Shown: positions 18,634 to 60,274, counted from the first letter of the stretch. The stretch is 64,000 nt of DNA from Minisyncoccota bacterium (GCA_041659365.1 JBAZYH010000001.1:37590-101589); one strand, 5' to 3'. Notes: a model not told the origin generated them from the sequence alone. Program-made: numbers and translations.

Positions 18634-18640
18634 AAAAAAC

Positions 18641-28279: not shown

Positions 28280-29065
28280 TTAAAATAAAGAACCTTTACC
28301 TAAATAATGTCTAAGTGTATATATCCAGTCTTCATCATCATTTTCATTCTCGAGTTTTGAATTCAAAAGCCATTCTAAATATCGTCTGTCGGTCCTCAAC
28401 ACTTCCTCTATTTGTTTATCTTTATATTTTCCAAAAGTAAATATTGTAAAGAGAGATGGTTTTTCTGATATTTCCAACATTTTATCTATTGCATCTATAT
28501 CACTTGGTAATTCTTCTTTTACTTTTAACAAAAGTCTTTGAAAAATAGCATATAAAACATTTACATCACCTTCGGCGTCGTGCGCACTACCTTCTACTTC
28601 AAGATCAAGAAAATATCTTAAATACTGGAGGTTATATTCTGGTATAAGATTTTTAGGATCTAAATATCTAGCAACTCTTAAAGTACAGATCTTTTTAGGG
28701 ACTTTTAATCCTTCTGCTTCAAGCATGGCAATATCAAATTTTGTATTATGAGCTACAAGTATTCCGTCTTTCAACAAAATCTCTAAATCTTTTGACATTG
28801 GACTACCAATGAATGGTGGTTTATCAACCAACATTTTATTTGTAATATGAGTAATACTCATAGATTTTACAGACATAGGAAGCGGTGGTTTAAAGTATTC
28901 AGTAAAGGTCCCCTTTGAGGTTTTATAACAAACCTGACAAAGTCTATCTTTGCCCAATTCATTACCTGTTGTTTCTGTATCTAAAAATATTAATTCTTTC
29001 ATCTGATTTTGCAAAATCACGTCACCCAACTGTCCTCTTAGGGGGACGCAAACTGATTTAGACAT
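28280..29065 (-). CDS. DEDDh 3'-5' exonuclease (DnaQ/ExoX-like) with C-terminal DUF3820-like motif
   Basis: Exo I LIFLDTETTG, Exo II VAHNTKFDIAML, Exo III HDAEGDVNVL; C-terminal FGKYKDKQIEEVLRTDRRYLEWLL. Confidence 0.75.
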   Translation of the reverse strand: MSKSVCVPLRGQLGDVILQNQMKELIFLDTETTGNELGKDRLCQVCYKTSKGTFTEYFKPPLPMSVKSMSITHITNKMLVDKPPFIGSPMSKDLEILLKDGILVAHNTKFDIAMLEAEGLKVPKKICTLRVARYLDPKNLIPEYNLQYLRYFLDLEVEGSAHDAEGDVNVLYAIFQRLLLKVKEELPSDIDAIDKMLEISEKPSLFTIFTFGKYKDKQIEEVLRTDRRYLEWLLNSKLENENDDEDWIYTLRHYLGKGSLF

Positions 29066-42374: not shown

Positions 42375-42508
42375 AATTGAATTTCCCCTTATTTATAGAC
42401 ATATTTATGAATTTATACAAAATCATTGACAAATATAGTAATAGGGTGTATAATAGGATGTAGGAAGTAAATCAACCCCAGTAAGGTGATTTTGAAAAGG
42501 AGGGTTTT

Positions 42509-42910
42509 ATGAAAAACTGGATGCTCGGTGCACTAATGATGGGATTAGGGTTTTTACTCTTTGTTTCCGTCTGTACACGTACACTAGGTCCCTGTAATAA
42601 AAAATCAGAGACCCAGACCAAAACCGAAATCGAGGAGGTTGTCGCAACTACCTTGGGTTGGAGGGAAATCAAATCCCTGCCAGTCCCTGTTGTGACTACC
42701 AACGCGAGCATTTATACTTATGTCAGTCAGCTGAAATTCGGATTCGGTGATGGGCCGATTCACACTGCACTGATTACCAAAGTAGTGACTTTTAAGTACT
42801 GGAAAATCGGTGACGAAGTTCTCGTCGTAATGGTTCCAGGAACAGTCGGCAACATTCCGACACCAACCTTCATCGTGATCGATTATCGTCCACAGGAACA
42901 GAAGAAATAA
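42509..42910 (+). CDS. putative lipoprotein, hypothetical; strongly GC-rich (about 47%) relative to genome
   Basis: Strong RBS aaaaggagggtttt-ATG; signal peptide with lipobox-like FVSVC; followed by terminator agcacctagcgaaagcgggtgct plus T-run (42947-42978). Confidence 0.5.
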   Translation: MKNWMLGALMMGLGFLLFVSVCTRTLGPCNKKSETQTKTEIEEVVATTLGWREIKSLPVPVVTTNASIYTYVSQLKFGFGDGPIHTALITKVVTFKYWKIGDEVLVVMVPGTVGNIPTPTFIVIDYRPQEQKK

Positions 42911-42981
42911 TCCTGTAGTTCGATGAACACAATCACAAACAGCAGCACCTAGCGAAAGCGGGTGCTGTTTTCTTTTTCCCC

Positions 42982-43020
42982 GTCATTGCGAGAAGGTAAT
43001 CCGACGTCGCAATCCAGGTT
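42982..43020. repeat. short palindromic repeat element
   Basis: gtcattgcgagaaggtaatccgacgtcgcaatccaggtt. Confidence 0.55.
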
Positions 43021-43023
43021 AAT

Positions 43024-43605
43024 TTACAAAAACTTCTTAATCTTAAAATCTTCAAACAACTGTAACCCTTTAATCTGTTCTGGAGTTATTTTAGTAGAGT
43101 CATATTTAATATCAAAAGTATCAGGGTCATAAAAAGTCACATCACTTACCCCAGCTTTTTTAAGCTCATAAACTATAAGTGGTGCATGCCCTGTACATGG
43201 TATATCTATCTGAACTTTTAATTCACTCAAGTCACTAGCGAGTACAAAATTTGCTCCACTTTTTATATTTGTCATCCAAGGGAACACAACATAAAAAAGT
43301 AAAACATTTACAAGTATCATACTAGAAAAAAGAATCGATATATGTCTGACTTTATTTGTACAACATTGTTTCTTAAAATAAAAATATGAATATACAGAAG
43401 CAATAATAAAAGAGAGAATTACTGAAGCAGGAAAAATCCATTTACTAGATAAAAAGTTTTTTAAAAAAGCTGTTCCAAAACCAACCCCAGTGATCATAAG
43501 TATTGCAAAAGCAATACACCCTATATGAGGAATAATTGAAAGTAAAATCCCCTTTCCTATACCAGAACCAATATTATTTTTTTGTTTGTTTTGCTCTTTT
43601 TGCAT
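43024..43605 (-). CDS. hypothetical membrane protein (4 TM) with C-terminal soluble domain
   Basis: Hydrophobic helices; C-terminal IDIPCTGHAPLIVYELKKAGVSDVTFYDP domain; no family recognised. Confidence 0.45.
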   Translation of the reverse strand: MQKEQNKQKNNIGSGIGKGILLSIIPHIGCIAFAILMITGVGFGTAFLKNFLSSKWIFPASVILSFIIASVYSYFYFKKQCCTNKVRHISILFSSMILVNVLLFYVVFPWMTNIKSGANFVLASDLSELKVQIDIPCTGHAPLIVYELKKAGVSDVTFYDPDTFDIKYDSTKITPEQIKGLQLFEDFKIKKFL

Positions 43606-43646
43606 TACTAAATAATTATAACATATAAAATAATGAAATATTTTTT

Positions 43647-43717
43647 TGTCATTGCGAGGTAGTCCGTCGCAATCCAGGTTTTATAAATTCTGGATTCCCG
43701 TCTACACGGGAATGACA
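43647..43717. repeat. two short palindromic repeat elements
   Basis: tgtcattgcgaggtagtccgtcgcaatccaggtt (43647-43680; identical to 13121-13154); ctggattcccgtctacacgggaatgaca (43690-43717). Confidence 0.6.
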
Positions 43718-43747
43718 ATACAAAAATCAAGGTTAAACCTTAGTTTT

Positions 43748-44830
43748 TTATTCAACCCTAAAATTCACCCTTCCTATCACCTTTCCTTTCAAGGTTAAAA
43801 TATTAACTCTCCACTCACCTAAAGAAACGCTGTATTTTTCTGAATATGTCCTGTAACCATCATCTCTACCACCGACAATCGAAAGATTAACCCTACCCGA
43901 AGTAATCCATTCTTTTTTAATTTCGTCATAATACTGCCACTCGTGTATTATCTTTGTATCAAATTTTGTCGGAGAAAAAATCGAAGTAAAAACATACGTA
44001 GGCTCACCTTCTATTTTATGATAGATCTCATAAACTCTAAAATAATCTCTCCAGGTTTTCATCTCTCCTTTTAAAATATATTCACCATTTTTATCCTTAC
44101 TAACAAAGCGGTAAACCCCCGCATCTTTCAAAGCAAGAGGTATTGGAGGAATAATATTTCCAAAATACATTCCATTCATTATTATAAAAGTTCCTAAAAT
44201 ACTATAGATTAGTCCTCTCTTACTTTTAACAAACTTTTCCTTTGCAAAAATTATAAGTATCTTAGCTATCAACCAAATAAAAAATAAACTTAATATTCCA
44301 CTATAAATAAAAACGTCATCTCCAATTCTTCCAAAAAATACTGGTAATAAATAAATCAAAAACATATATACAGAAAGAAACAAAGTAACTAGTTGTAATG
44401 TAAGTTTAGAATAATGTTTTACCCAAATTTCATTACCTATTAGTAGAGCAAATATTATCAAAATAAAAGGCCAACTCAAAAATAAGGTAGAACTTCTAAA
44501 ATAAAAAACTATATAAGTACTAAATAAATTACCAAAAGCAAACTGTATAATAAAGGTCAGCCAAAAATCTATATCGTTACCATATTCACTTTTAATTTTT
44601 CCTGCCTTAACTTTGTTATCTAAATAATGTAAAAATATAATTCCAAATACAGCTATAAATAACTGTATTAATATCCAAAGATTATTCGTAAGATTATCTA
44701 CCCTAGTTAAAGTAAGTGGTGTTATTATTAAACCAAGAATAAGACCAGAAGATGAAAAAAATCTACTATACTTTTCAAAAAGTTTTATTAGGTTTCCTAT
44801 TATTTTTTTTAATTTAATTATAAAATTCAT
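43748..44830 (-). CDS. hypothetical polytopic membrane protein (about 8 TM) with C-terminal beta-rich domain
   Basis: Multiple hydrophobic helices; C-terminal about 100-aa soluble domain; no family recognised. Confidence 0.5.
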   Translation of the reverse strand: MNFIIKLKKIIGNLIKLFEKYSRFFSSSGLILGLIITPLTLTRVDNLTNNLWILIQLFIAVFGIIFLHYLDNKVKAGKIKSEYGNDIDFWLTFIIQFAFGNLFSTYIVFYFRSSTLFLSWPFILIIFALLIGNEIWVKHYSKLTLQLVTLFLSVYMFLIYLLPVFFGRIGDDVFIYSGILSLFFIWLIAKILIIFAKEKFVKSKRGLIYSILGTFIIMNGMYFGNIIPPIPLALKDAGVYRFVSKDKNGEYILKGEMKTWRDYFRVYEIYHKIEGEPTYVFTSIFSPTKFDTKIIHEWQYYDEIKKEWITSGRVNLSIVGGRDDGYRTYSEKYSVSLGEWRVNILTLKGKVIGRVNFRVE

Positions 44831-44877
44831 TTTTAAAATATGTAATCATAGAAAAAAATTAGTATTTGCTTTGTATT

Positions 44878-44956
44878 GTGTCATCCTCGCGTATGCGGGG
44901 ATCCAGTATTTGAATTATTTTAAAAATCCTGGATTCCCGTCTGCACGGGAATGACA
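44878..44956. repeat. two short palindromic repeat elements
   Basis: tgtgtcatcctcgcgtatgcggggatccagtatt (44878-44910); cctggattcccgtctgcacgggaatgaca (44928-44956). Confidence 0.55.
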
Positions 44957-44975
44957 TACAAATAGAAAAATTAAT

Positions 44976-45494
44976 TTACATTTTTCTAGAATCATATGCC
45001 CAGTGTAATAATGTCTGCCTTTGTTTTGTTCTACAATAAATATCTTTTACCCTACAATTATTCCTTATTTGTCCAACATGTCTTCTCATCTTTTTCCATC
45101 TAGAGATTTGTTTTCTGTCTTCGTCTTGTAGCCTCCTTCCCATATAATACCGACAATACCACTGAAACCATCCTCTAGGGTCACATTCATTATTTATCCA
45201 ACCTTTCCTTCTCCAAACCAACAAAGATTGACTAGCATTTACTCCAAAATAATTTAATTTAGGGTCATGCACATCGTGACAAAGTTTTGCTTTTTTAAAC
45301 CAATCTTTTGGAAATTCCTTTTGACAATCTGTCATATATTTTCCACCAAAAACTCCAAGCTCAAGCATTTCATTAGGAGATAAATCTGGTTTAAAATCTT
45401 TATCAAAATTCTTCCCTACCGGTTCAGTAAGTTCGTACTTATAATTTTCCTGCATTAAATCATTTACTAAAATCTTTTTCATCTTTAAAAACAA
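44976..45494 (-). CDS. conserved-looking hypothetical protein, Trp/Cys/Arg-rich
   Basis: 172 aa; motifs GWFQWYCRYYMGRR, RQTLLHWAYD. Overlaps the M29 gene's 3' end by 10 nt, so operonic. Family not recognised. Confidence 0.5.
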   Translation of the reverse strand: MFLKMKKILVNDLMQENYKYELTEPVGKNFDKDFKPDLSPNEMLELGVFGGKYMTDCQKEFPKDWFKKAKLCHDVHDPKLNYFGVNASQSLLVWRRKGWINNECDPRGWFQWYCRYYMGRRLQDEDRKQISRWKKMRRHVGQIRNNCRVKDIYCRTKQRQTLLHWAYDSRKM

Positions 45495-46756
45495 TACTGT
45501 CCATTTTCAAATATTATTTTTTCTTTTCCATCTTTCAAATAAGCAGTGATTTTTCTATCAGTTGTACTAATAATATCATTATGTACAGAAGAATTATTAT
45601 AACCAAGTTTTTCCCAAGTATTTTTTGAAACTTTATCTGGATTTCCTATATAACAATCGTGATATGAATTACCAATAGCAATATGCGTATTACCATATTT
45701 ACCACCAAAATTTTCATCATATAAGGTATTCGCCATAAACTTTGTTATCCTTGAAAATCTTTTATCGGTCATAGAAAATTCTCCGATTTTATTTGCTCCT
45801 TCAGTAGCAATAATCTCTTTTAGAAGTTTTTCATTCTTTTCCGCCTTACTTTTTATAATAATACCATCTTTAAATTCGAGTTCTATACCTTCAATAAAAT
45901 TCCCAAAAGCATAAAGCGGCTGATTAAATTTAACATGACCATTTGTACCCCTCCAATCTGGAGAAGTAAAAATCTCAAAACTCGGGATATTTCTTCCACT
46001 ACCACCAACCCATTTTCTCTTATCACCTATCTTAATCCATAAGTCTGTACTCTCACTTTCAATATGAACTTGATCAATATCCATATTGTTTAATTTCTCC
46101 TTATAAATCTCCATTTCATCATAAACAGATTTCCATTTTGCAACAGGGTCTTTCTCATCTAAGAAACATGATTTAATTATTTGATTCCAATATTCCTTAA
46201 AAGTCATTCTAGACTCCTTAGCAATCTCCTCAGTAGCATAAGTACCCAAAGTCCAAGTAAATTTTCCTGCATTTTCTTTTTTGTCTCTCCACTCTCTCCA
46301 TGGTTTAAAAATCTTACTTCTAGACATTATTTTTTTGGAATCTATTTTTTGTAATGATCTTAAGTTAGTTTCACTATCAATAAAAATAGAATGATCAACT
46401 TGATTGAGCAAACCTTTCATATAAGAAGCTGGAAAAAATTCTACTTGATGGTCTTCAGAATACAAATAAAAATCTTGATCGACGTTATAATCTTTATCAT
46501 TTGAAGGACGGTAATCAGATATAACATGTCCACCAGCTTTCCATATAGCCCTTCTTATCTCTATATACAAAGGTTTAGCAACTTCCTGTACTATAAGTTG
46601 AACTACCTCGCCCTTTTTAATTCCAGCTCCACTACCCAAAGCAAAATTTACTAATACATTTGCATAATTTTCTAAAATTCTTTTTGACGGGCAGTAAACT
46701 TTTTTCATGTGATTTTGTATTTTTGAAAAAATGAGGTGATGATCTTGCAAGATCAT
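45485..46756 (-). CDS. aminopeptidase, M29 (AmpS/aminopeptidase T) family
   Basis: N-terminal ILENYANVLVNFALGSGAGIKKGEVVQL and downstream HIAIG/metal-ligand blocks resemble M29 aminopeptidases. Judged by eye. Confidence 0.65.
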   Translation of the reverse strand: MILQDHHLIFSKIQNHMKKVYCPSKRILENYANVLVNFALGSGAGIKKGEVVQLIVQEVAKPLYIEIRRAIWKAGGHVISDYRPSNDKDYNVDQDFYLYSEDHQVEFFPASYMKGLLNQVDHSIFIDSETNLRSLQKIDSKKIMSRSKIFKPWREWRDKKENAGKFTWTLGTYATEEIAKESRMTFKEYWNQIIKSCFLDEKDPVAKWKSVYDEMEIYKEKLNNMDIDQVHIESESTDLWIKIGDKRKWVGGSGRNIPSFEIFTSPDWRGTNGHVKFNQPLYAFGNFIEGIELEFKDGIIIKSKAEKNEKLLKEIIATEGANKIGEFSMTDKRFSRITKFMANTLYDENFGGKYGNTHIAIGNSYHDCYIGNPDKVSKNTWEKLGYNNSSVHNDIISTTDRKITAYLKDGKEKIIFENGQYCF

Positions 46757-46804
46757 GTCGCGTAGTGTCCGTTGAAACGCGACGCAAACTAATAGAAAAC
46801 TTCC
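46752..46804 (-). promoter_or_regulatory. conserved leader hairpin abutting the M29 start codon (second copy at 58091-58142)
   Basis: mRNA sense: GGAAGTTTTCTATTAGTTTGCGTCGCGTTTCAACGGACACTACGCGAC-ATG. Stem GTCGCGT/ACGCGAC here; GTCGCGC/GCGCGAC in the other copy, a compensatory pair. Confidence 0.45.
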
Positions 46805-46843
46805 TTAAATCTTAAAAAGGTGTCTCCTCATTTTTTCTTCTCT

Positions 46844-49295: not shown

Positions 49296-49649
49296 CTACT
49301 TCCCAATCTTCCCCAACAACAAACTAAACAATTCATAAAAGTTAGATTGTACCTCAGCCTGATCCGTAGCTTTAGTAAACTTCTCCCAACAAGCAAAAGC
49401 ATCTTTGTCTTTTAGAGCTCGTATAGAGTTTTCTAGTTGTAATCTATCTTCAAATGAGACTTCTTTATTACCTCGGAGTACTTTATCTACAAACAACCTA
49501 GTAAATGATAATACATCACTATTAATTCGTTGTTTTTGTTCTATTGTATCTATTTCTTTTATAACGACAAAGTACTTCACAGTGAAGAAGACGTTGCTTA
49601 TTACAAGTGATGCAAACAATATAATTATCAAAACTTTTAATCTATTCAT
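49296..49649 (-). CDS. hypothetical protein with N-terminal TM helix
   Basis: 117 aa; no family recognised. Confidence 0.4.
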   Translation of the reverse strand: MNRLKVLIIILFASLVISNVFFTVKYFVVIKEIDTIEQKQRINSDVLSFTRLFVDKVLRGNKEVSFEDRLQLENSIRALKDKDAFACWEKFTKATDQAEVQSNFYELFSLLLGKIGK

Positions 49650-49663
49650 ACTAATATATCTTA

Positions 49664-52600
49664 TTAATAATTAATCTTTCTACCACGACGAATGATAAAA
49701 ATTGTTACAAAGTATATTAAAGCAATAGAGACTATTAAGGTAAAAATATTCTGTACCTTAAACACCTTCCCCCACCCAAACTCCCCCTTCATCTCCACAT
49801 TCATAAATACACCTTTACTCTCCTCCACTTTGAATGATTCACTCTGGTAATCAGAGTATCCAAGGGCAGTAACTGTAAGGTAATAATCTCCAGGAGGAAC
49901 AAGGAATGAGTATCTTCCTGTCACATCGGTTGTTTGTGGATTCTTTTGTTTGAAATTATCTCCTGGCCAGAGTTCGTAGGTAGAAGTCTCTGGATTCTTC
50001 CAGTAGATAGAAGATACAGCATTAGCAATACGTATTTCTTTGTCACCACCAATCTTCTCATATATATATCCTTCAGGATCAACAAGTACAATCATACTTA
50101 GTTCTCTTTGTTCTTTCGTTTTATCTTCATAACTAATTATGGTCTTTAGTTCATATTGTCCAAGAGTATATGGAGAAGACACATCTGCAGTCCAGATACC
50201 ATTACCACTATCCTTGTAATCAAACTTAGCTACAACAAGTTCTCTTTCCTCTACAGCATCTAGTACTGAAGCATTTTGTTTTACATAACTTTCTTGAAAC
50301 ATTAGATATCCATCGATTCTTTTAGCTTTTGATTCTGGTTTGACTGCAAACTTGAGTAACTGTCCTTGTATAGTGTTTAATTTTTGTGTAGTAAATCCCT
50401 CATTTGATACAGATAGTTTTACATTTAAATCTATAGATTCATCGAATGTTCTTACAAAGATTAAGTTTGTAGGAACTTTATTACTTTGTGTTTGTGTGAA
50501 GTTTGAAATAGAAATATTGTTTGATAGACCAAAGTATTCTGCAAGACCTGGTAATAAAACTCCACCCATAGATAGGTCATTATTTAATGATGTTATAGTT
50601 GGGAACTTATTTATTATGTTCTTGAAAGCTACTGGTAAGTTGATGAGGTTCACCATTTCTGATGGAACTATTTCTCCTATATTATTATTTAAATTAGTTT
50701 GATCTTCTTCTGTAACAGATACTGGTGGAAGAGTAACTTCTGGTACTGGTATTATTGAAGTAATAATATCAATAATCTTTTCTATTGTAGGTGTGGTACT
50801 TAGGGTAACTGAGGTAGAAACAACTGATGAAGCTACGTTTGAAGCATCAAGTGATCTTGCATATACAGTATAGTCCCCATCAGGACAGGTTGTATCTGCT
50901 CCACAGAGATTGTATTCATATGTGGTTTGTACTGGAATGATTATCGCTTTATTGAAATCTGGATTATTAGATATTATTATCAGCTTGGTATCTGTATTGG
51001 GTGTGATATTAAGTGTGACTATTCTATCATCAGTCCTATTTGATGTTCGTATATCAAATAGGTTATCTGGTGTAGTTTGTGATGTTGTTGTAATAGGTTC
51101 TGATGTAGTTGTTCCACCGCTACTACCTCTTACTCTATATGTTATGTGAGTTGTACTACTTGTAGAGTCAGAATTATTGTAAGAATCATTACATGCAATG
51201 TATATGTCTTTAGTACCTGAAGTAAATGATGGTAGTGTACATGAGATTAATAAACTATTTGATGTACATGAGATGTCTGCTGACATATCATCATATGATT
51301 TGTTTGTAATGGCTAGTCTACAATCTCCATTTTCACTTATAGTGAAAGTTACAAGTTGACTTGCACGTGAGATATAGGAGTCGTCTGCAGGGGAAACACT
51401 TGATACTGTCGGTGCACTAGCATCCCATGTAAGTATATATTCATCATATGTAGAATTTCCTGCATTATCTGTGACTGTAAGTCTAATTGTATAAGTACCA
51501 TCTGTAGTTGCAGATATTGTTGTTGATGAAGCTGTAGTTGTACCGAATGTTATACCTATACCAGACCAAAGATATGAAGCTATACCTGAAGTAGTATCGC
51601 TTGATGTAGAAGTCTGAGTGAAGGTGGATGATCGAGTTTGATCTAATCCAACAGTAGTCGTTGGAACTGTGATATCAAGTATAAATGACCCCATAGAAGT
51701 AAAACTAGACGCAAGCGATCCATCATTATTTTGTGCACACCAATAATATGTACCATCCAAACCGATAGTAGATGATGGGGTGTAGGTAGTTGTGGCAGAA
51801 TCAGAAACAGTTTCTGTAGATGTACCAGAATTTACAATGTTTAAATTATTTAAACAATCATTTGCTGTAGTAGAAGATATACGATAGTTGGTAGTACCAG
51901 TATCTCCAGTATTTGGATCTGAATAATAAGCTGAGAGTGTCGGAGTGTTGTCGTTTGTATAAGAAGCGTTTGACGGAGATACTAATGTTGGTATGTTTGG
52001 AGCAGAGTTGAATGTCCAATTTGTATTATTACCACTATCTACAGAGTTCATTGGAGCTATTGCTTTCCCACTTGCAGTAGAATCTTTTATATTTAAATAG
52101 TTTGCTATGACAGTAGCTGGATTACTTACATTAATATTCCACTTGGTGCCAGAGATACTTGATATCAAACTAAGTAAATTATTTGCTATACCACTGAGTG
52201 TAAGAGAATTAGATATATTTGTAGTAGAGTTTGCCGCAAACGTAAGAGTACTGCTACTTGTAACTGATTTTACAAAATTATAGAAAGTATTTGAACCTGT
52301 TATGGATTGATTTTCTCCATTGAAAGTTATTGTAGAGCTACCTGTGTTGAAAGTGCCGGAGTTGGTGAGGTTTCCACTGAGGTTTATGTTGTGGTTGTTG
52401 GTTGTAAAAATAGAATTCGCACTGATTGTAAAATCACCCAAGAATGTTACTGGATTTTGTAGACTAATTGTTGAAATACTTAAATCAACTTCATTTCCAG
52501 AACCCAAATTATAAATATCATCTATTTCACTTTGCGTTAAGGCAACATTATAAATCCTAATATCATCCAAGCTTCTTTCCTGATTGTTTACTGAAGGTAG

Positions 52601-55600
52601 AGAACCTAATAAAAATGACAAACCCGTTGTATCTACTGAAGCAGAAGATGTCAAAGGTGATGTTGCCAAAACTCCATTAATATATGTTTTCCAAGAGCTA
52701 CCATCTCTCATAAATGTTAGATGCGTCCATTCTCCACCACTTATGGGCATAGAATATTGTCCTTCTCCAGCTGGAGTATTAAACGCAATTCTACCACTAT
52801 TACTCCAATATGAATAAATAACATAATTACTGAATCCAAACAAACCAGCATGAGAAGAACTATTTGACATTCTCGCCCAGAAAGATATTGTCCAATTATT
52901 AGTTCCACTAAAAGTATCTTTAATAACAGAGGCATCTATATTATTTTCTCCTGAAAATGCCAAGGCAGTATTTATTTTTCCTGAGGTTGTTAATATACTT
53001 GTATCTTGAGAAGCCGTCACATCAAAATTATTTGAGGTATTATCATCCACTGTTGTTCCACTCGTATCATTCATCCTATAATGAGCAACAAGTCCATTTG
53101 CGACTGAAGAAAAAATTGATACATCATTCAAATTAGAAACCCCCACATCCAAAGACGTAGTCGCCCCGTTAAGAGTCAACGTTCCACCATTTGCATTAAA
53201 ATTATCAGAGTTTGTAAAATTACCAGAGACAGTAAGATTACCAGAAGTAGAGTTAAATGTTCCAGAATTGATTAATAAATCTCCAGTTAAAGTAATACTG
53301 TTCGTTCCTCCATTAAATACTCCATTGTCTTGAGTAAAATCACCTGAAATAGAAAGTGTACCAGAGGTTGAATTAAATATTCCATCTGATATAGATAAGT
53401 TACCACTTAGAGTTATGGCTCCTGTTCCTCCATTGAAAGTTCCATTGCTTTGAGTGAAACCACTCGTACTAAGTGTATTTGATATTGTAAGAGTTCCTAC
53501 ATTTAGTATTACCCCACCAGTAAAGGTATTAGCTCCTGTAAGAGATAATTCTCCTGTACCAGCTTTTGTCATAGAGTATGCACCAGAGACTATTCCTCCG
53601 ACAGTAAGTTTAGCGGTGTTGTTTGTGGTAATGATACGATTTGCTGGTAAGGTAATATTTGCAGTACCCAGATTCAAATCATTAGTTCCACCAAAAGTAA
53701 TATCACCACTCCATGTCTGCGCATTATTTCCAGACAGTGTCACAGCACTAACTGAAGTATTATCTATTGTTCCACCTACTATAATAAGTGAACCTGCACC
53801 AATAGCACCAGCACTATTTATATTTAATGTACCAGCATTTAGAGTTGTAGATGTTATTGTGTTTGAGTTTATTAAAGTCAGTATTCCATCATTTTGAGTA
53901 ATGGAAGTTGCTGTAATAGTATATGATGATGTTTGAGTTATTGTGCCTGTATAACCTGTAGCAATAGTAAGAGTACCAGTAGTAACATTTGTATCTATAT
54001 CACAATTTGTTGTGTCGGCACTATCAAAAGTTACTGGTTGTCCTGCCTCAGGAACTCCAGCTCCACCTGCACCTCCAGAAGTTAATGACCAATTGTTTGT
54101 ATCATTCCAACTAGATGTTGAACCTACCCAATATTTAGATACTGAAGGAGTTGAAGGAATAGCCACTTCTCCTGCTATCCATGTTGGTCCACTTATTAAT
54201 GTTCCATTATTTGCACTATCTGAGAAATCAGAAACTGCTGTTCCTGTACCTTCATCAAAATGATAACCAGCAACTAAACCACTATTAAACGGAGCTACTG
54301 TTTTGTCTCCATAAACTCCAGTACCACTATTATATAGACCGAGTATTTCTGGAGCTGATAAAGTACGGTTCCAGATATTTATTTCGTCCAAACCACCATT
54401 CAAAAACCAAGATGAATCAGCACCCATGCCGAAATATTTAATATTGACGATATTTGTGATTGGTTTAGAGTCTTGGTATTGCGCACCGTCAATATAAAGT
54501 GTTGCGGTTCGTCCAACTCCTTCTGTATATGACTCTGTTAGAGTGACTAAATGCCAACCAGTCCAAGTAAGACCATCCATACCCATCCAATTAATTTGGA
54601 CGCCATCAGTATTTGAGCCAAAATAAAGATTATTATCAGAATACCAAAGACCAAAGTATGCCACATTTACACCTGTACCTCCAATCAAAGCATTGGATGC
54701 TGTAAAATCCTTTACCCATAGTGAATATGTCATATCAACACCACTGTCTGCTATTGGAGTTGTCAAATCGACATAACTACTTCCACCAAAACTCAAAGCA
54801 TAACTACCTTCAGTTGGATCAACTACGTAATCCACCTCCACCTCTCCGATAATCTTTAGATCAAAAACATCTGTCGGACTACCAAGCTCAGGTATAAGCT
54901 TTTTATAAAGTCCTTCATGATCAATATTAAATGTAGCGACAAGTTGATTAGTATCTGTAGTATAAGCTTCTATAGTTACAGGAGTAGAACTTGCAGGTTT
55001 GGCATAGATAGTAATATCATTTGCATTAGTAAGTATTTTTTCAAAGGTAACTCTGACATATTGTCCATCTGATAAAGGAGCGTAGTTACCATCTTGTGTT
55101 TTTACAGTGTCATAAATATCAGCAAGTATTTCTTTGTTTGCATCAAGTTGAAAAGCTTTTGAAATAAATATGATTTCAAAAGTCTGGACTGATAAGTGAG
55201 GTACTGTCCATTCTACATAGTCTAGCTTTCCATTGTTGTCGAGGTCATATGCTTTGAAGGTGACATTCTGATCTCCGTTGTTTGACCACTTTATTTTTAT
55301 TTTATCTTCTTGTCCTACTTTATATATTTCAGGAATGTTTGTAAAAGCCAGAACGTTTGTTATTGGTATTTCTCCTTCTACAGAAGAAACAGTAACTACC
55401 TTACCTGTGTCTGTTGTAGCTTCGGCTATTGTAGGGGCTGGAGTTTCATATTCAACAGTAACCAAGTCGGTTGATGTTGCAGTTGTAGAAGTAGAAGTTG
55501 TACTTGTTATAAATGTTGGAATTGATGTAGATGCTAATTCATCTAAAACTTTTATATCTTCATTTGACGAACCTCCACCACCTCCACCTGTTGTGATTTC

Positions 55601-56443
55601 TTCTTCTGCTTGTCCATTTTCTAGAGTGGATGTAGCTATATCTTCTGCTTGCCCGTTTTCTAGGGTTGTTGTAGAAACATCTGTCTCATCGGTAGTAGTT
55701 GCTACTTCGTCTGTGGTAGTACCTACGTCTGTAATTATTATCTCTTCTGTGGTAGTTGATACCAATTCTGTTGATGTGGAAACTTCTTCAATAGTAGATA
55801 CTACTTCGTCTGTTGTACTTGCTAATTCATCTACAACATCTTCAATAACTACATCATTTACAACATTTGTACTTTCTTCATTTATAACTTCTTCAATTAC
55901 AACAGGTGTTTCTTCTTCTGGTATGTCAACTACAGCAGAAACATCTACAGTAACCATTTCTGGTTCTGTAGAAGCTTCATCTACAGTAGCAAAAGAAGAA
56001 CCTACTTTTGAGAAGGCTCGACTTATTGAAGCAAAGAAACCTTTTGTATTTTGTTTCTTTACTAATTCAGCTAGAGCAAGTGATGCTTCTGATTTACTTC
56101 TTTCGTTTGATAATTTAGATAGTTTAATTCTGTCTTCGTTTGTGAGTTTAGAAGATGTTTGTATTTTGTTATTACTTACTGTAGATGTAGATATTTTTAT
56201 ATCATTAGCAATACTAGGAATCTCTACTAGATGTTGTAACCTATTTATATCGGAAACACTTACTGTTTTTATCCATCTAATTGGCTCACCTCCAAGTGAT
56301 GGGAGTTGCTTTATACTAAAGTTACTTACAATGGATTTGTTGCCTGTACTTGGAGCAAAGTAAAACAAAGCAAAAGCTATAATGAATGATCCGAGAATAG
56401 GAGAGATTGTTTTTATGCTTTTAAAAATGTTTTGTTTGTTCAT
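49664..56443 (-). CDS. giant cell-surface protein (2259 aa): N-terminal signal-anchor, Thr/Ser-rich low-complexity, two LamG/concanavalin-like lectin domains, beta-helix-like repeats, carboxypeptidase-regulatory-like beta-sandwich, C-terminal TM helix plus RRGRK tail
   Basis: LamG-like motifs LDEINIWNRTLSAPEI and SLDDIRIYNVALTQSEIDDIYN; repetitive TLT/GN segments (NTAKLTVGGIVSG...GTGELSLTGANTFTGGVILNVGTLTISN); CarbopepD_reg-like TGRYSFLVPPGDYYLTVTALGYSDYQSESFKV; C-terminus FTLIVSIALIYFVTIFIIRRGRKINY. Confidence 0.8.
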   Translation of the reverse strand: MNKQNIFKSIKTISPILGSFIIAFALFYFAPSTGNKSIVSNFSIKQLPSLGGEPIRWIKTVSVSDINRLQHLVEIPSIANDIKISTSTVSNNKIQTSSKLTNEDRIKLSKLSNERSKSEASLALAELVKKQNTKGFFASISRAFSKVGSSFATVDEASTEPEMVTVDVSAVVDIPEEETPVVIEEVINEESTNVVNDVVIEDVVDELASTTDEVVSTIEEVSTSTELVSTTTEEIIITDVGTTTDEVATTTDETDVSTTTLENGQAEDIATSTLENGQAEEEITTGGGGGGSSNEDIKVLDELASTSIPTFITSTTSTSTTATSTDLVTVEYETPAPTIAEATTDTGKVVTVSSVEGEIPITNVLAFTNIPEIYKVGQEDKIKIKWSNNGDQNVTFKAYDLDNNGKLDYVEWTVPHLSVQTFEIIFISKAFQLDANKEILADIYDTVKTQDGNYAPLSDGQYVRVTFEKILTNANDITIYAKPASSTPVTIEAYTTDTNQLVATFNIDHEGLYKKLIPELGSPTDVFDLKIIGEVEVDYVVDPTEGSYALSFGGSSYVDLTTPIADSGVDMTYSLWVKDFTASNALIGGTGVNVAYFGLWYSDNNLYFGSNTDGVQINWMGMDGLTWTGWHLVTLTESYTEGVGRTATLYIDGAQYQDSKPITNIVNIKYFGMGADSSWFLNGGLDEINIWNRTLSAPEILGLYNSGTGVYGDKTVAPFNSGLVAGYHFDEGTGTAVSDFSDSANNGTLISGPTWIAGEVAIPSTPSVSKYWVGSTSSWNDTNNWSLTSGGAGGAGVPEAGQPVTFDSADTTNCDIDTNVTTGTLTIATGYTGTITQTSSYTITATSITQNDGILTLINSNTITSTTLNAGTLNINSAGAIGAGSLIIVGGTIDNTSVSAVTLSGNNAQTWSGDITFGGTNDLNLGTANITLPANRIITTNNTAKLTVGGIVSGAYSMTKAGTGELSLTGANTFTGGVILNVGTLTISNTLSTSGFTQSNGTFNGGTGAITLSGNLSISDGIFNSTSGTLSISGDFTQDNGVFNGGTNSITLTGDLLINSGTFNSTSGNLTVSGNFTNSDNFNANGGTLTLNGATTSLDVGVSNLNDVSIFSSVANGLVAHYRMNDTSGTTVDDNTSNNFDVTASQDTSILTTSGKINTALAFSGENNIDASVIKDTFSGTNNWTISFWARMSNSSSHAGLFGFSNYVIYSYWSNSGRIAFNTPAGEGQYSMPISGGEWTHLTFMRDGSSWKTYINGVLATSPLTSSASVDTTGLSFLLGSLPSVNNQERSLDDIRIYNVALTQSEIDDIYNLGSGNEVDLSISTISLQNPVTFLGDFTISANSIFTTNNHNINLSGNLTNSGTFNTGSSTITFNGENQSITGSNTFYNFVKSVTSSSTLTFAANSTTNISNSLTLSGIANNLLSLISSISGTKWNINVSNPATVIANYLNIKDSTASGKAIAPMNSVDSGNNTNWTFNSAPNIPTLVSPSNASYTNDNTPTLSAYYSDPNTGDTGTTNYRISSTTANDCLNNLNIVNSGTSTETVSDSATTTYTPSSTIGLDGTYYWCAQNNDGSLASSFTSMGSFILDITVPTTTVGLDQTRSSTFTQTSTSSDTTSGIASYLWSGIGITFGTTTASSTTISATTDGTYTIRLTVTDNAGNSTYDEYILTWDASAPTVSSVSPADDSYISRASQLVTFTISENGDCRLAITNKSYDDMSADISCTSNSLLISCTLPSFTSGTKDIYIACNDSYNNSDSTSSTTHITYRVRGSSGGTTTSEPITTTSQTTPDNLFDIRTSNRTDDRIVTLNITPNTDTKLIIISNNPDFNKAIIIPVQTTYEYNLCGADTTCPDGDYTVYARSLDASNVASSVVSTSVTLSTTPTIEKIIDIITSIIPVPEVTLPPVSVTEEDQTNLNNNIGEIVPSEMVNLINLPVAFKNIINKFPTITSLNNDLSMGGVLLPGLAEYFGLSNNISISNFTQTQSNKVPTNLIFVRTFDESIDLNVKLSVSNEGFTTQKLNTIQGQLLKFAVKPESKAKRIDGYLMFQESYVKQNASVLDAVEERELVVAKFDYKDSGNGIWTADVSSPYTLGQYELKTIISYEDKTKEQRELSMIVLVDPEGYIYEKIGGDKEIRIANAVSSIYWKNPETSTYELWPGDNFKQKNPQTTDVTGRYSFLVPPGDYYLTVTALGYSDYQSESFKVEESKGVFMNVEMKGEFGWGKVFKVQNIFTLIVSIALIYFVTIFIIRRGRKINY

Positions 56444-56531
56444 GCAAAAATAATATAAAAGAAGATCTCTTTTTATGGAGTAATTTTATCATGATAGTGA
56501 AGGTAAATAAAGGAGAAATGGGTGTGGATAA

Positions 56532-56996
56532 TTATTTGTTTAACCAAGTGATTGTAAGTTGCAAAATAGTTGCGAAAGAGACCCAAAGTAAATAAGGAAT
56601 ATTAATATAAGCAACCCAGGTAACATATGGAAAAATAATAATAATAGACCAGATAAGTGTTCCGAGAATTAATAATATATCCATCGCAGCCAATAGGTTA
56701 TTTTGTAAACTAAACTGAAAGTATGTAAAAGAAAAATTAAAAACTAAGTTTAATATAAAAGGTAATAAAACAATAAAAGGAATTTTGTTTGTAAAATATA
56801 AATAAATAACATATCCAAAAGAAATAGCAATAAGTATATAAAGAAAAGTCCAAACTGGACCAAATATCCAAGAAGGTGGAGCAAAAAATGGTCTGATTAA
56901 TGTGGAATACCAATTATATTGAGTCATAAAAAAATAAATTATTTTAATAAATATACGTAGCCCATCCTCACTTTTTATATTAATATTATATAACAA
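56532..56996 (-). CDS. TspO/MBR family tryptophan-rich sensory protein
   Basis: WYSTLIRPFFAPPSWIFGPVWTFLYILIAISFGY plus 5 TM helices. The probable start is the internal Met (MTQYNWY) near 56927. Confidence 0.7.
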   Translation of the reverse strand: MLYNINIKSEDGLRIFIKIIYFFMTQYNWYSTLIRPFFAPPSWIFGPVWTFLYILIAISFGYVIYLYFTNKIPFIVLLPFILNLVFNFSFTYFQFSLQNNLLAAMDILLILGTLIWSIIIIFPYVTWVAYINIPYLLWVSFATILQLTITWLNK

Positions 56997-57034
56997 ATAT
57001 CAAACCCCCGCACTCATAATGCAGGGGTTATCAT

Positions 57035-57298
57035 TTATCTGGTATAGTAGCTTTTTGTGGGATTAGTAATACCGATAAAAAAAAGACCGAAAATACCAAA
57101 AGAAAAACATGTAAGGATATGCGGCTTATGTAATTGGGATATCTTGAATCTGATTCCCTTTTGAGTAAAAATCGATGTAATCAAAAAAGTAAAAATACCA
57201 GATAAAAAATAAATCCATAAAAAATCAATTCCTATCACCAACCAAAGTATCATCATTAAAGTAAATAATACAAGGGCAACACTTTTTTTCATATTCAT
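57035..57298 (-). CDS. small 2-3 TM membrane protein
   Basis: 87 aa, hydrophobic. Confidence 0.35.
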   Translation of the reverse strand: MNMKKSVALVLFTLMMILWLVIGIDFLWIYFLSGIFTFLITSIFTQKGIRFKISQLHKPHILTCFSFGIFGLFFIGITNPTKSYYTR

Positions 57299-57418
57299 AC
57301 GAATCCTCCTTTTTTGTTTAAAAACAACAAGTTCATTAATAGGTATAATTTATTGTTGTTTACTTGTCAATTTAAATCCTATTTTTTCTAATTAGTTTAC
57401 TATAGGTAATTCATTAAT

Positions 57419-57452
57419 TTCACACATATACGCCATGGCGTATATGTATGTT
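57419..57452. repeat. 34-bp palindrome (copy 2, one mismatch) overlapping the stop codon of the Cas2-like ORF
   Basis: ttcacacatatacgccatggcgtatatgtatgtt. Confidence 0.6.
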
Positions 57453-57840
57453 AATTAAAAATATTATTTTTTTCTGAATATTCTTTTGCTAATCTAAAAG
57501 TTTTTAAATTATCTTTCAATCCTATAGATTTAATATAATCAACAAAACTTTTTGGTAACGGAGAAGGTCCAACCCAAACACTCCTCTGAATCATTACATA
57601 ACCAAACTTTTTTAAATGTCTACGAAGCCAATCTCGTTCAGTCTTTTGATCGTGTGAGATATCATACATAACAATTAATTTTTTAGGTGATTCTTTTTTG
57701 AAATTTGATTGAAACGAAACATTGTATGTATCTCTTACTTTATTTTTTCTATTTTCTTTTTTTCTTTTATCAAAATCAGGACTACTTGTTGGAATACCAA
57801 AAGAATTAACCCACACCCCTTTATAGTTATGTTTACTCAT
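57451..57840 (-). CDS. Cas2-like ferredoxin-fold small protein with a 50-aa basic N-terminal extension; solitary, no other cas genes or array
   Basis: Residues about 54-100 (KKLIVMYDISHDQKTERDWLRRHLKKFGYVMIQRSVWVG) match the Cas2 beta-alpha-beta core (lvvYDis..krRrkvaklLkryG.rvQySVFec). C-terminal LKDNLKTFRL resembles the Cas2 DSVRIYRL strand. Bracketed by identical palindromes. Confidence 0.4.
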   Translation of the reverse strand: MSKHNYKGVWVNSFGIPTSSPDFDKRKKENRKNKVRDTYNVSFQSNFKKESPKKLIVMYDISHDQKTERDWLRRHLKKFGYVMIQRSVWVGPSPLPKSFVDYIKSIGLKDNLKTFRLAKEYSEKNNIFN

Positions 57841-57855
57841 TTTAATATTATATAC

Positions 57856-57893
57856 TTTTTACACATATACGCCATGGCGTATATGTGTAAAAA
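57856..57893. repeat. 34-bp perfect palindrome (copy 3) immediately upstream of the Cas2-like ORF
   Basis: tttttacacatatacgccatggcgtatatgtgtaaaaa. Confidence 0.6.
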
Positions 57894-57954
57894 GTAATAA
57901 ATTATTTTTTTAAATAATACTTTTATATTATTATTGTTGTGTTAGTATAGATAT

Positions 57955-58079
57955 TGAATTTCCGATTTGGGTGTAGGTAGTCCTCTACCGAATAACGAGG
58001 CGTCGGATAAAACGCCTACAAGGGTTTTCGGGCCTAGAGACCCAACTTCTACCAGCTCTGCACATGAGAGCTGGTTTTT
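57955..58079 (+). ncRNA. candidate small structured RNA (GC-rich island ending in intrinsic terminator); family unknown
   Basis: About 115 nt at about 48% GC in a 25% GC spacer, with internal helices (aggcgtcggataaaacgcct; gggcctagagaccc). Ends with cagctctgcacatgagagctgg plus TTTTT (58053-58079). Attempts to fold it as tRNA, tmRNA or SRP RNA failed. Confidence 0.25.
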
Positions 58080-58090
58080 CATTTAGCAAA

Positions 58091-58142
58091 ATGATGTCGC
58101 GCAATTGTCCATTAAAGCGCGACACAAACTAATAGACATCTC
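58091..58142 (-). promoter_or_regulatory. second copy of the conserved leader hairpin element (see 46752-46804)
   Basis: Minus-sense: GTGGAGATGTCTATTAGTTTGTGTCGCGCTTTAATGGACAATTGCGCGAC-ATCATTTTGCTAAATG, followed by a short GC-rich Arg-rich frame without an ATG. Confidence 0.4.
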
Positions 58143-58162
58143 CACATTTTTTATTTTTGTCA

Positions 58163-58852
58163 TTATCTGAAAGATTTTTCATATTTTGAATCTAAATAAA
58201 TCCTATCAATTACTACCTTTAGAAAATTTGCAATAAATGAATTATCAATTCTATAGAAAAACTTCTTTGCACGAGATAAGAATACTGTGCTTTCTTTAAA
58301 GACTATCAAAGTACAATTTCCTGACAACGGCTCGTTTAAAAAACGAGCTGAGCCACTTCTATCCTTTATCGCATTATTCTCATTATTACTAAGTGCCAAC
58401 TTAAAATAATGTAATGCTTTTAAACTACCAATACCTTTTAAAATAATCCCCTTATTTGAAATCTTCTTCTGCCAATTTAAAAAATTAATTCGATCATTAA
58501 ATAAAGACTTTATTTCCTCATCTGTTTCTATTGAATAAATAACCTCACCTTTTTTTAGATTCAATAATTCCTCAAAAAAATTATTGATTTGTGATAAAGA
58601 ATCATTTTGCTTGAACTCACATTTTATATATTTATTATCACATAAAGAATACAAAAAACCATCTTTAATGGTTATTTTTTTTCTATTTAATGTATTCAAT
58701 GAGTTATAAATACTAGTACGAGCAATATTCAACTTTTTACTTATTTCAGATACAGAAAGAAACCTATTTTTTTGAAGTAGATTAAATATCTTTTCTTCAG
58801 TTGGTTTTAATACTAAAAAATCTCTTACTTTCATATATTGAATAGTGTACAT
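58163..58852 (-). CDS. winged-helix transcriptional regulator (TrmB/MarR-like N-terminal HTH) with C-terminal domain
   Basis: N-terminal LKPTEEKIFNLLQKNRFLSVSEISKKLNIARTSIYNSLNTL, typical of wHTH regulators; 229 aa. Confidence 0.5.
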   Translation of the reverse strand: MYTIQYMKVRDFLVLKPTEEKIFNLLQKNRFLSVSEISKKLNIARTSIYNSLNTLNRKKITIKDGFLYSLCDNKYIKCEFKQNDSLSQINNFFEELLNLKKGEVIYSIETDEEIKSLFNDRINFLNWQKKISNKGIILKGIGSLKALHYFKLALSNNENNAIKDRSGSARFLNEPLSGNCTLIVFKESTVFLSRAKKFFYRIDNSFIANFLKVVIDRIYLDSKYEKSFR

Positions 58853-58919
58853 TATATGTACAAATAATGCAAAAAAAACTTCCTTATTGTTTAATGATTA
58901 TAGAAAGGAGATTAAAAGC

Positions 58920-59090
58920 ATGAGAAGAAACAAAAATGAAGAAATTAGAAAAGCAATTGAAAAACTTCAAAAAAAGTGTGAACATGAATGGAAATATTCA
59001 CATCAGTATTGTCCGCACGGTCTAATGCGAAGTGTTCACTCCAAAGATATCTATGTATGTTCTGTATGTGGTGTAAAAGAAGAAAGGTGA
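58920..59090 (+). CDS. small zinc-ribbon protein (about 56 aa)
   Basis: RBS aaaggagattaaaagcATG; Cys/His ligands CEHEW...CPHG...CSVCG. Followed by terminator ctccaggaaagaattcctggag plus T-run (59100-59130). The track ORF start at 58845 is probably too far upstream. Confidence 0.45.
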   Translation: MRRNKNEEIRKAIEKLQKKCEHEWKYSHQYCPHGLMRSVHSKDIYVCSVCGVKEER

Positions 59091-59131
59091 CCTAAACCTG
59101 GCTCCAGGAAAGAATTCCTGGAGCTTTTTAT

Positions 59132-60274
59132 CTAAATCTTAAACTCAATCACATCTCCATCTTTAACTACATATTCCTTCCCTTCTGTTCTTACCAAACC
59201 TTTTTCTCTTGCTTGACCATAAGAACCAACTTCAAGAAGTTTATTCCATTCTATAACCTCAGCACGCACAAACTTTTCTTTAAAATCTCCATGTATAGCG
59301 GTTCCGGCTTCTGGTGCAGTCCACCCCTTTTTAATAGTCCAGGCGCGAGTTTCATCTTCTCCTGTAGTAAAATAAGTCATAAGACCAAGTAAGTCGTAGC
59401 CTGCTTTTATAAGATTATCTACTCCATCTTCCTTAGACAATTTTTCTTCTCCTGCTAAGGCACTTCTCATTTCTTCTTTTTCAGCACCCTCGAAATCTTT
59501 TAATTCTTGCTCTATACCTGCATCTACTATCACATATTTAGAGTTAGTTTCTTTTCCGCCAGAGGCGGATCCGCCTTGGGCGGAAAAGAAATCCATTAAC
59601 TTTTTCCAACGATCATCTTTTATATCATCCAAGTTTTTTCCACCAGTTTTTTTATTTAAAATATAAAGTATTGGTTTTGCAGTAAGAAGACAAAGTTTTT
59701 TCGCTTCTTCTATTTCCTTTTCATCTAAAACTGCAGTACTAGAAAGTTTTCCTACTTCAAGCACAGCGTTTAACTTTACTAATGCACTTTTCTCTATAAC
59801 AGCACTTTTACTTCCTCTTTTGATATCACTTTCTATATTACTAAGTCTTTTGGATACAGTCTGAAGATCAGCAAGAACGAGCTCAAGATTAATAGTCTCA
59901 ATATCTGAAAGTGGATTTATCACTCCATTTACATGAATAACGTTATCATCTTCAAAGATACGGACCACTTCAGCGATAGCATCTGTCTCACGAATATTTG
60001 TAAGGAATTTATTTCCCAAACCTTCACCAGCAGAAGCTCCTTTTACAAGTCCAGCAATATCCACAAATTCAACTGCAGCAGGAATAGTTTTTGCCGCTTT
60101 AGAAAATTCTGAAAGCTTCCAAAGTCTTGGGTCAGGTACAGCAACAACACCTACAGATGGATCTATAGTACAAAAAGGATAATTTTCACAAGCTACAGCC
60201 TTACGAGTAAGCGCATTAAAAAGTGTACTTTTCCCGACGTTTGGTAAACCTACAATTCCGATTGATAATGACAT
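59132..60274 (-). CDS. ychF: ribosome-binding ATPase YchF (Obg-like GTPase family)
   Basis: G1 GIVGLPNVGKSTLFNALT, G3/G4 blocks, C-terminal TGS domain (EFKI). Contains a Gly/Ser-rich insertion. Confidence 0.85.
   Translation of the reverse strand: MSLSIGIVGLPNVGKSTLFNALTRKAVACENYPFCTIDPSVGVVAVPDPRLWKLSEFSKAAKTIPAAVEFVDIAGLVKGASAGEGLGNKFLTNIRETDAIAEVVRIFEDDNVIHVNGVINPLSDIETINLELVLADLQTVSKRLSNIESDIKRGSKSAVIEKSALVKLNAVLEVGKLSSTAVLDEKEIEEAKKLCLLTAKPILYILNKKTGGKNLDDIKDDRWKKLMDFFSAQGGSASGGKETNSKYVIVDAGIEQELKDFEGAEKEEMRSALAGEEKLSKEDGVDNLIKAGYDLLGLMTYFTTGEDETRAWTIKKGWTAPEAGTAIHGDFKEKFVRAEVIEWNKLLEVGSYGQAREKGLVRTEGKEYVVKDGDVIEFKI

Follow-up and report, generated by a model that had tools for sequence, protein, structure and literature searches.

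Genes and features at the locus

The DNA analysed is a stretch of 64 kb, referred to as the window, with 32% GC overall. The record of its own YchF protein gives a Candidatus Paceibacterota MAG as the origin. A sequence-only reading had drawn attention to a spacer in which a GC-rich candidate non-coding RNA with a terminator is followed by a second copy of a hairpin that also lies in front of an M29 aminopeptidase gene. The spacer is bordered by two minus-strand genes. GC content was 0.48 across 57950-58099 in comparison to 0.19-0.29 in the flanks, which agrees with the reported GC-rich block in an AT-rich spacer. The region contains the following features.

57451-57840, minus strand: gene for a protein with a PaaX_M/Cas2-like domain, left neighbour of the stretch under study
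57857-57892, no strand assigned: 36-bp perfect palindrome TTTTTACACATATACGCCATGGCGTATATGTGTAAAAA, belonging to another dispersed family
57926-57952, plus strand: AT-rich candidate promoter region of the RNA, from the alignment with the related contig L018, the promoter scan of L018 and boxes of the TGATATAAT type; candidate -10 boxes are TATTAT (57926-31), TGTTAGTAT (57940-48) and TAGATA (57947-52)
57956-58045, plus strand: conserved 90-nt core of the putative RNA, matching L018 7980-8069(-)
58051-58080, plus strand: intrinsic terminator of the RNA, with the stem at 58051-58075 and then a T-run
58079-58140, plus strand: copy A of a dispersed repeat (profile match 58081-58136)
58079-58094, plus strand: hairpin 1 of copy A, TCATTT AGCA AAATGA, overlapping the T-run of the RNA terminator
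58095-58124, plus strand: hairpin 2 of copy A, made of TGTCGCGC, a 14-nt loop with TGTCCATTAAA, and GCGCGACA
58125-58140, plus strand: conserved tail of copy A, CAAACTAATAGACATC
58163-58852, minus strand: winged-helix HTH gene, right neighbour of the stretch under study
58845-59090, plus strand: 81-aa zinc-ribbon-like ORF (CxxC...CxxC) with its own terminator
58163-59131, divergent pair: two-gene module made up of the HTH gene and the 81-aa ORF

Near-identical palindromes of ~34-36 bp (ACACATATACGCCATGGCGTATATGTGT) flank the PaaX_M/Cas2-like-domain gene at 57418-57450 and 57857-57892. The same palindrome was also found at 14886-14920 and as a variant at 9566-9625, with related copies in the contigs L014, L018 and L019. 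Their T-run is 5' of the stem and their A-run 3' of it, so these palindromes are not canonical terminators. The palindrome upstream of the RNA is conserved in position, with TCTACGCCATGGCGTAGA at the equivalent place in L018.

A dispersed 60-nt repeat

Copies of the repeat were collected by scanning species-representative genomes with the pattern GTCGCG-N10-18-CGCGACNCAAACTAAT and JGI metagenomes with a looser pattern, and by profile searches of all fetched DNA. In total 12 distinct full-length copies were found, three of them in the window and nine in related contigs (L002, L003 with two copies, L004, L006, L012, L013, L014 and L019). Partial copies exist besides, and truncated or tandem ones lie at L002 4414-4444, L003 1348-1375 and L013 1860-1890. 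A pattern match in L005 (Actinomycetota) was rejected as a chance match in GC-rich DNA. The three copies in the 64 kb of the window, a density of about one per 20 kb, are all intergenic. The two copies other than copy A, and the sequences that enclose one of them, are the following.

29005-29082, plus strand: copy C, diverged and absent from the sequence-only reading (profile match 29005-29060, E = 1.4e-6); hairpins 1 and 2 are GATTTTGCAAAATC and GTCACCC...GGGGGAC, with CATATT..AATATG as a third hairpin
46725-46739: left arm, GAAAAAATGAGGTGA, of an element of the D1 repeat family that encloses copy B
46740-46800, plus strand: copy B, with hairpin 1 at 46740-46755, hairpin 2 at 46756-46784 and then the tail (profile match 46741-46796)
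46803-46836: loop and right arm, CCTTAAATCTTAAAAAGGTGTCTCCTCATTTTTT, of the same D1 element, directly downstream of the stop of the SPFH gene at 46844

The match of about 80% between 58080-58140 and 46740-46800 that had been noticed earlier was reproduced by alignment, and the 19-mer CGCGACRCAAACTAATAGA occurs exactly twice in the window with 0.02 occurrences expected. Hairpin 1 of the repeat is TGATCTTGCAAGATCA, with the variants TCATTTAGCAAAATGA, TGATTCTGCAGAATCA and TTTTTGCAAAAA. Hairpin 2 is formed by (T)GTCGCGY and RCGCGAC(R) around a loop of 13-14 nt with an invariant TGTCC. The tail is RYAAACTAATAGAC, after which some copies have a third hairpin (GACATATCC..GGATATGAC). Of the stem cells in the alignment of the copies, 98.8% are paired and 6 of the 14 pairs change on both sides; the covariation score was reached by 0 of 500 shuffles. 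Covariation is present in both hairpins, with four of the six pairs in hairpin 1. The stem difference between GTCGCGC/GCGCGAC and GTCGCGT/ACGCGAC, on which the sequence-only reading had relied, is real and splits the 12 copies 6:6. The difference described there between ATC ATT TTG and ATG ATC TTG also exists; these letters belong to hairpin 1 and represent two compensated pairs (TCATTTAGCAAAATGA versus TGATCTTGCAAGATCA).

The loop, of 13 or 14 nt, and the tail carry indels of 1-2 nt that shift the frame, and therefore no reading frame is kept in the repeat. No consistent -35/-10 arrangement was found in it on either strand. A pseudoknot between the loop of hairpin 2 and the tail was considered and rejected, with pairing in 1-2 copies only. 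The copies are single or partial-tandem and there are no spacers of regular length, as would be found with CRISPR repeats; the neighbouring match to "Cas2" is to the Cas2-like domain of PaaX_M.

Context and nature of the repeat

Four copies (copy A, one of the two in L003, designated L003b, and those in L006 and L013) directly follow an intrinsic terminator and its T-run, and the copy in L002 overlaps a stop codon. The copies in L004, L014 and L019 and the other copy in L003 (L003a) lie within mosaics of other hairpin repeats; such mosaics were seen in L019 (6040-6320), L004, L003, L006 and L014. Copies B and C each adjoin a gene on the opposite strand, at its start. The presence of the repeat differs between close relatives.

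Copy B is nested in another repeat. Excising 60 nt (46743-46802) turns 46725-46836 into a near-perfect D1 element, consisting of an A-run, a hairpin and a T-run, and raises the local alignment score against four intact D1 copies from 45-59 to 70-80. The junctions are ambiguous by 1-3 nt and show no clear target duplication. In terms of filled and empty sites, the D1 element around copy B is intact but for the interruption. The junction between the RNA and ychF in L018 has no copy A; this junction is not a strictly orthologous empty site. The D1 family (AAAAAACGAGGTGAGACC...GGTGTCTCCTCGTTTTTT) is found at 18629, 25849, 30023 and 30617, and two of these copies, at 25849 and 30617, come shortly after stop codons. 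In all, the window holds at least four further families of hairpin-forming extragenic repeats, often clustered, and the same families occur in L013 and L019. Sequences of the others include GTCATTCCCG..CGGGAATCCAG and GTCTTTGCGAG..GCAATCCAGG, and their sites include 10850-11013, 13066-13161, 18457-18653 and 42293-44978.

Based on these comparisons the ~60-nt family appears to be peculiar to this Paceibacterota lineage and to behave like elements of the REP/BIME or MITE type. Copies accumulate in terminator hairpins or beside them, and in groups of other hairpin repeats, and compensatory change maintains the stems. The repeat may be mobile, as judged only from its nesting and distribution. An IS200-like Y1 transposase gene was observed near ychF in L021 (84-515), a strain-level variant of the relative with 93% identical ychF, and is absent from the sister contigs L019, L020 and L022. 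With this transposase, the only one seen, tblastn gave nothing in the window or in other repeat-bearing loci. By tblastn and inspection of its flanks, it is unrelated to the 60-nt repeat.

An explanation that overlaps with the one just given is that the repeat is a functional module selected by the host, rather than a selfish or mobile element, which would reinforce termination, protect 3' ends or bind a conserved protein. Its stems are compensated, its loop TGTCCNTTNAA and tail CAAACTAAT are almost invariant, and 6 of the 12 copies touch a terminator hairpin or a T-run. The nested copy B, too, leaves the outer stem and the U-run of the D1 element intact. A module of this kind is, however, at odds with the inconstant orientation of the copies, the three in the window being antisense to the surrounding genes and most others sense, with the existence of truncated and tandem partial copies, and with a presence that varies between close relatives. 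We consider selection by the host possible but rather unlikely as the full account, and keep to the element of REP/BIME or MITE type.

Two of the contigs, L006 and L018, are from the same assembly (GCA_964479775.1), which carries the label "uncultured Candidatus Saccharibacteria bacterium". The YchF proteins of this assembly and of the window are 85% identical, and gene order and all repeat families are common to both. The label looks wrong in the light of these similarities, and since the assembly comes from a close relative, the apparent spread of the repeat across classes would be an artefact of labelling.

Conserved core and terminator of the putative RNA

Loci of close relatives of YchF were fetched, and in one of them, L018, the GC-rich block was found again at 7946-8071(-), with ychF on the other strand (E = 1e-34, 86% identity over 123 nt; BLAST and nhmmer). 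With both methods L018 was the sole homologue outside the source organism. Identities between the window and L018 were as follows.

RNA core (57956-58045), 90 nt: 92%
ychF DNA: 82%
Third codon positions of ychF: 67%
RNA terminator: 66%
100 nt upstream of the RNA: 63%

The core is thus conserved above the neutral level, with 92% in comparison to 63-67% for intergenic DNA and third codon positions. Conservation sets in sharply a few bases after the AT-rich promoter-like region and stops at ACCCAA before the terminator. In L018 the promoter scan gave TTGATT-16-TATGAT on the strand of the RNA.

The intrinsic terminator that had been proposed for the plus strand was recovered as a hairpin of 9 pairs at 58051-58075 with the tail TTTTCATTTA; the terminator scan called 2 such sites in the region, with 0.4 expected. 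L018 has a terminator in the equivalent position with its T-run on the same strand. The stems are CCAGCTCT/AGAGCTGG in the window and CCAGTCAG/CTGACTGG in L018, so that four pairs have changed on both sides while pairing is kept. Both genomes therefore retain a terminator of the RNA's own on the plus strand. With a homologue, a core conserved far above neutral and a terminator kept by compensatory changes, the earlier call of a candidate ncRNA with a terminator gains support, and the GC-rich block is very likely a real small-RNA gene, as far as comparison of two genomes can tell.

The core differs between the window and L018 at seven positions, one of which is core position 1 and six of which are internal. 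Five of the six internal substitutions fall on proposed pairs of an RNAalifold-type model, and none of them loses pairing on the plus strand: the substituted pairs are U.G, G.U or U.U in the window and Watson-Crick in L018. A cloverleaf-like alternative fits almost as well, with one disruptive change. The two folds are distinguished by P0 (57959-57968/57999-58009) and cloverleaf P1 (57967-57972/58040-58045), respectively. Both are ~98% paired and both are drawn from two sequences, with 4-5 one-sided changes and no two-sided ones.

Thermodynamic folding showed no preference for the plus strand of the core. The plus strand was assigned mainly because of the terminator and the wobble pattern, as the folding energies do not discriminate. 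Alternatively, the minus strand of the core could be the functional one. It would then be a processed RNA or a 3'-UTR, placed after ychF in the relative and after the HTH gene in the window, and the conserved hairpin would supply the terminator or 5' stem of that transcript. In L018, read on the strand of ychF, the block indeed comes immediately after the ychF stop. Folding is equally good on both strands, and in L018 the core does slightly better on the minus strand (-29.7 versus -27.7 kcal/mol), and the invariant hairpin UUGGGUC-UCUA-GGCCCGA is better on the minus strand, where two U.G pairs take the place of C.A mismatches on the plus strand. Against this, the T-run is 3' of the hairpin on the plus strand only in both genomes, and the G.U and U.G pairs of the window at four substituted positions become A.C mismatches when read on the minus strand. 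The block is also conserved in the window although ~1 kb and two genes separate it from ychF, and its conservation stops sharply at the AT-rich promoter-like side. Function on the minus strand is improbable in our view, and the block is treated below as a plus-strand RNA.

Gene starts next to the repeat

The sequence-only reading had taken the hairpin either for a duplicated promoter or leader, which at the second site would drive a non-coding or antisense transcript, or for a cis-regulatory RNA acting on translation initiation of the M29 gene. Two of the three copies in the window, B and C, do stand immediately before the start of a minus-strand gene, and TTGCAA, the loop of hairpin 1, is similar to a -35 hexamer. 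The wider search gave a different picture, that of a dispersed family with 12 full-length copies in unrelated contexts: the motif recurs after terminators and stop codons and in repeat clusters, where most copies outside the window are placed, and near unrelated gene starts, in both orientations. At the M29 gene itself, a terminator-like hairpin of the upstream SPFH gene encloses copy B, and no sigma-70-like promoter was called in or next to this copy.

The M29 start codon was said to abut the hairpin, with its ATG inside a palindrome. This ATG (46756-46754) is merely the first of the maximal ORF. The Pfam match to M29 does not begin until residue 26, and the ATG further downstream, at 46708 (MKKVYCPSKRILENY...), is therefore probably the true start, which places it 33 nt from the element. 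Similarly, the ORF 28280..29065 has an artificial N-terminal extension through copy C. Its true start, MKELIFLDTETTG, is at 29002, and copy C ends 2 nt from the start of this DnaQ-like exonuclease gene on the other strand.

That the M29 gene has no Shine-Dalgarno (SD) sequence is correct. It is not special to this gene, as an SD-like motif was present at only 2 of 24 confident gene starts in the window. Many genes of the window have a TGATATAAT (extended -10) box that ends ~6 nt before the ATG (e.g. 1841, 4063, 17136, 28188, 29923 and 57840). With the box in this position and SD-like motifs nearly absent, the mRNAs of the source genome are suggested to be predominantly leaderless. At the site of copy A, moreover, the RNA is encoded on the opposite strand and terminates ahead of the element, and its homologue in L018 has no adjoining element. 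Taken together, a leader or cis-regulatory role at the M29 gene is very unlikely, and the hairpin is better read as part of the dispersed repeat. In practice the repeat makes called ORFs too long, the false N-termini of the M29 and exonuclease genes being examples. It also resembles leaders and can lead searches for motifs astray.

Class of the RNA

It is highly improbable that the block encodes a small protein, either from a 46-aa ORF at 57942..58082 (-) or from a TTG-started ORF of ~40 aa on the plus strand: open frames span it on both strands and the replacements in the plus frame are conservative (P/S, A/T, D/E, R/K, V/A), yet none of five core substitutions is synonymous in either frame (no synonymous change in 30 codons of the plus frame, all five core changes non-synonymous in the minus frame) while third positions of ychF are only 67% identical, L018 lacks a start codon for the minus-strand ORF, similarity is lost altogether in the C-terminal parts, and the four translated frames had no homologue among 5.8 billion proteins. 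Stop codons are rare in GC-rich islands, which also speaks against giving weight to the open frames. The block thus shows no synonymous excess, no conserved start and stop and no homologous proteins.

A riboswitch or other cis-acting 5' leader was rejected as well. There is no co-oriented gene downstream in either genome: in the window the RNA is followed by the repeat and the convergent HTH gene, and in L018 by the stop of the convergent ychF. A conserved pairing between sensor and terminator was also not seen, the 5' strand of the terminator being CCAGCTCT in one genome and CCAGTCAG in the other next to an unchanged core. The lack of a co-oriented downstream gene, together with a terminator stem that is free to vary while the core stays fixed, excludes a leader of the riboswitch type.

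No family of Rfam 15 (4227 models) matched the window or the homologue at gathering or permissive thresholds. The best overlapping matches had 13-26 bits in comparison to thresholds of 46-80, and all were noise. 5S rRNA, SRP RNA, 6S RNA, a tRNA-like RNA and a 23S fragment were considered by eye and dropped, with no model support. ARAGORN found only tRNA-Ala in the window, at another site. The covariance model of the core gave no further copy in 205 kb of related DNA. Searches of viral contigs and of phage and plasmid records for the RNA gave no match, and neither did BLAST against E. coli genomes. A duplex scan of the core against 56 gene starts of the window had a best value of -39.5 kcal/mol, which was equalled by 35% of shuffles.

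The tRNA-Ala gene (2665-2737, minus strand), the sole tRNA called, lies in a GC-rich stretch at 2040-2920. This stretch also holds a near-copy of the tRNA 3' end (2473-2506), T-arm-like pieces, a piece resembling the 5' half of a tRNA (2840-2892) and a direct repeat of 68 nt (2065-2132 and 2386-2453, 81% identical). ARAGORN and Rfam detected nothing in it beyond tRNA-Ala. The pieces may be att-site duplications, tRNA fragments or unusual tRNAs.

In the proposed model the RNA would be transcribed from the AT-rich promoter just upstream and end at its own intrinsic terminator, with a conserved core of ~90 nt that is probably structured. It would act in trans, most likely as a protein-binding structured RNA. 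This is favoured over a base-pairing regulator because the core evolves more slowly than the adjacent conserved GTPase gene ychF. Judged from the searches above, the small RNA appears to be of an undescribed class.

Variable region around the RNA and the repeat

In L018 the terminator of the RNA abuts the ychF stop codon, and neither the repeat nor the HTH module lies between the RNA and ychF. In the window the same interval (58081-59131, ~1 kb) holds repeat copy A, the HTH gene and the divergent 81-aa ORF. Homologous DNA of the module was found elsewhere with 73-76% identity over window positions 58196-59140 (L007, L008-L010 and L011). These homologues adjoin Phage_rep_O and methylase genes, an rve integrase gene, or TrwB/DUF87 (conjugation-type ATPase) genes, and the module is therefore judged to be accessory and probably part of a mobile element. 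Neither the RNA nor the repeat was found alongside homologues of the HTH gene (52-71% identical) in these phage-like, integrase and conjugation contexts. As ychF abuts the RNA in L018, while the repeat and an accessory module lie between them in the window, the side-by-side position of RNA and repeat reads as an accident of insertion history.

The window has ~10 kb between ychF and an MFS transporter gene (49300-59130) that are extra in comparison to L018 (7950-8213). They contain the HTH module, the PaaX-like gene, an 87-aa membrane protein, TspO, a 117-aa ORF and a 2259-aa surface-type protein (49664-56443). The M29 gene is likewise missing in L018, between the SPFH gene and the next gene. 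On this comparison 49300-59130 is a variable island.

Among the six ychF relatives that were fetched (81-93% identical) the RNA was present in L018 alone. It is missing at the ychF locus of the closest relatives, L019-L022 (ychF 93% identical), and of others, and hence it is either accessory or relocated.

The most likely reading of the spacer is that 57956-58080 (+) is a stand-alone small-RNA gene and 58079-58140 a dispersed extragenic repeat, two independent features that have come to be juxtaposed. Homology, conservation, covariation of the terminator and the hairpins, distribution and nesting were all observed directly. From these we infer transcription itself, the exact fold and function of the RNA, and the repeat's mode of spread. 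More tentatively, and with somewhat less than even confidence, we propose that the ~90-nt core represents a new structured-RNA class of genome-reduced Paceibacterota, absent from Rfam 15, and that the 60-nt unit is an unusually small mobile element which lands in terminator hairpins and leaves the hairpins intact.

Genomes in the candidate phyla radiation are tiny, and very few non-coding RNAs have been described from them. A small RNA with a near-constant core between species is thus a concrete candidate for a new RNA function in these symbionts, and one that can be put to the test. The nesting of copy B and the presence of at least four other hairpin-repeat families mean that such reduced genomes are still rich in extragenic repeats.

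Comparison with known systems

GC-rich intergenic islands in AT-rich genomes have been a comparative-genomics route to many families of the Rfam type "Gene; sRNA". With stand-alone bacterial sRNAs the RNA shares a GC-rich (48-50%) island in a genome of 32% GC, its own terminator, conservation above neutral, the lack of a coding signal and several possible helices. It differs in that no Rfam 15 model matched and in having two representatives only. With riboswitches and other terminator-ended 5' leaders it has in common a structured domain followed by an intrinsic terminator, whereas here no co-oriented gene lies downstream and no conserved antiterminator pairing is possible.

The repeat resembles the REP/BIME elements (REPINs) of Enterobacteria and Pseudomonas in being short, hairpin-forming and strictly extragenic, with stems kept by compensation, in forming mosaics with other repeat families and in often lying near terminators. 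Its three intergenic copies in the window and six covarying pairs fit a multi-copy hairpin of the REP type. It differs from them in its unit of ~60-75 nt with two different hairpins, a conserved loop of 13-14 nt and a conserved single-stranded tail, and there is no GTAG 5' of the hairpin and no RAYT/Y1 gene in the 64-kb window. In comparison to BOX, RUP and Correia MITEs (pneumococcal/Gram-positive, Neisseria) it has no sequence similarity and no terminal inverted repeats, its ends not being inverted copies of each other, or clear target duplication, and at 60 nt it is well below the typical MITE size. As in those elements, however, hairpin modules are variably combined, truncated and tandem partial copies occur, and the copies are nested in other repeats, lie near gene ends and can extend ORF calls.
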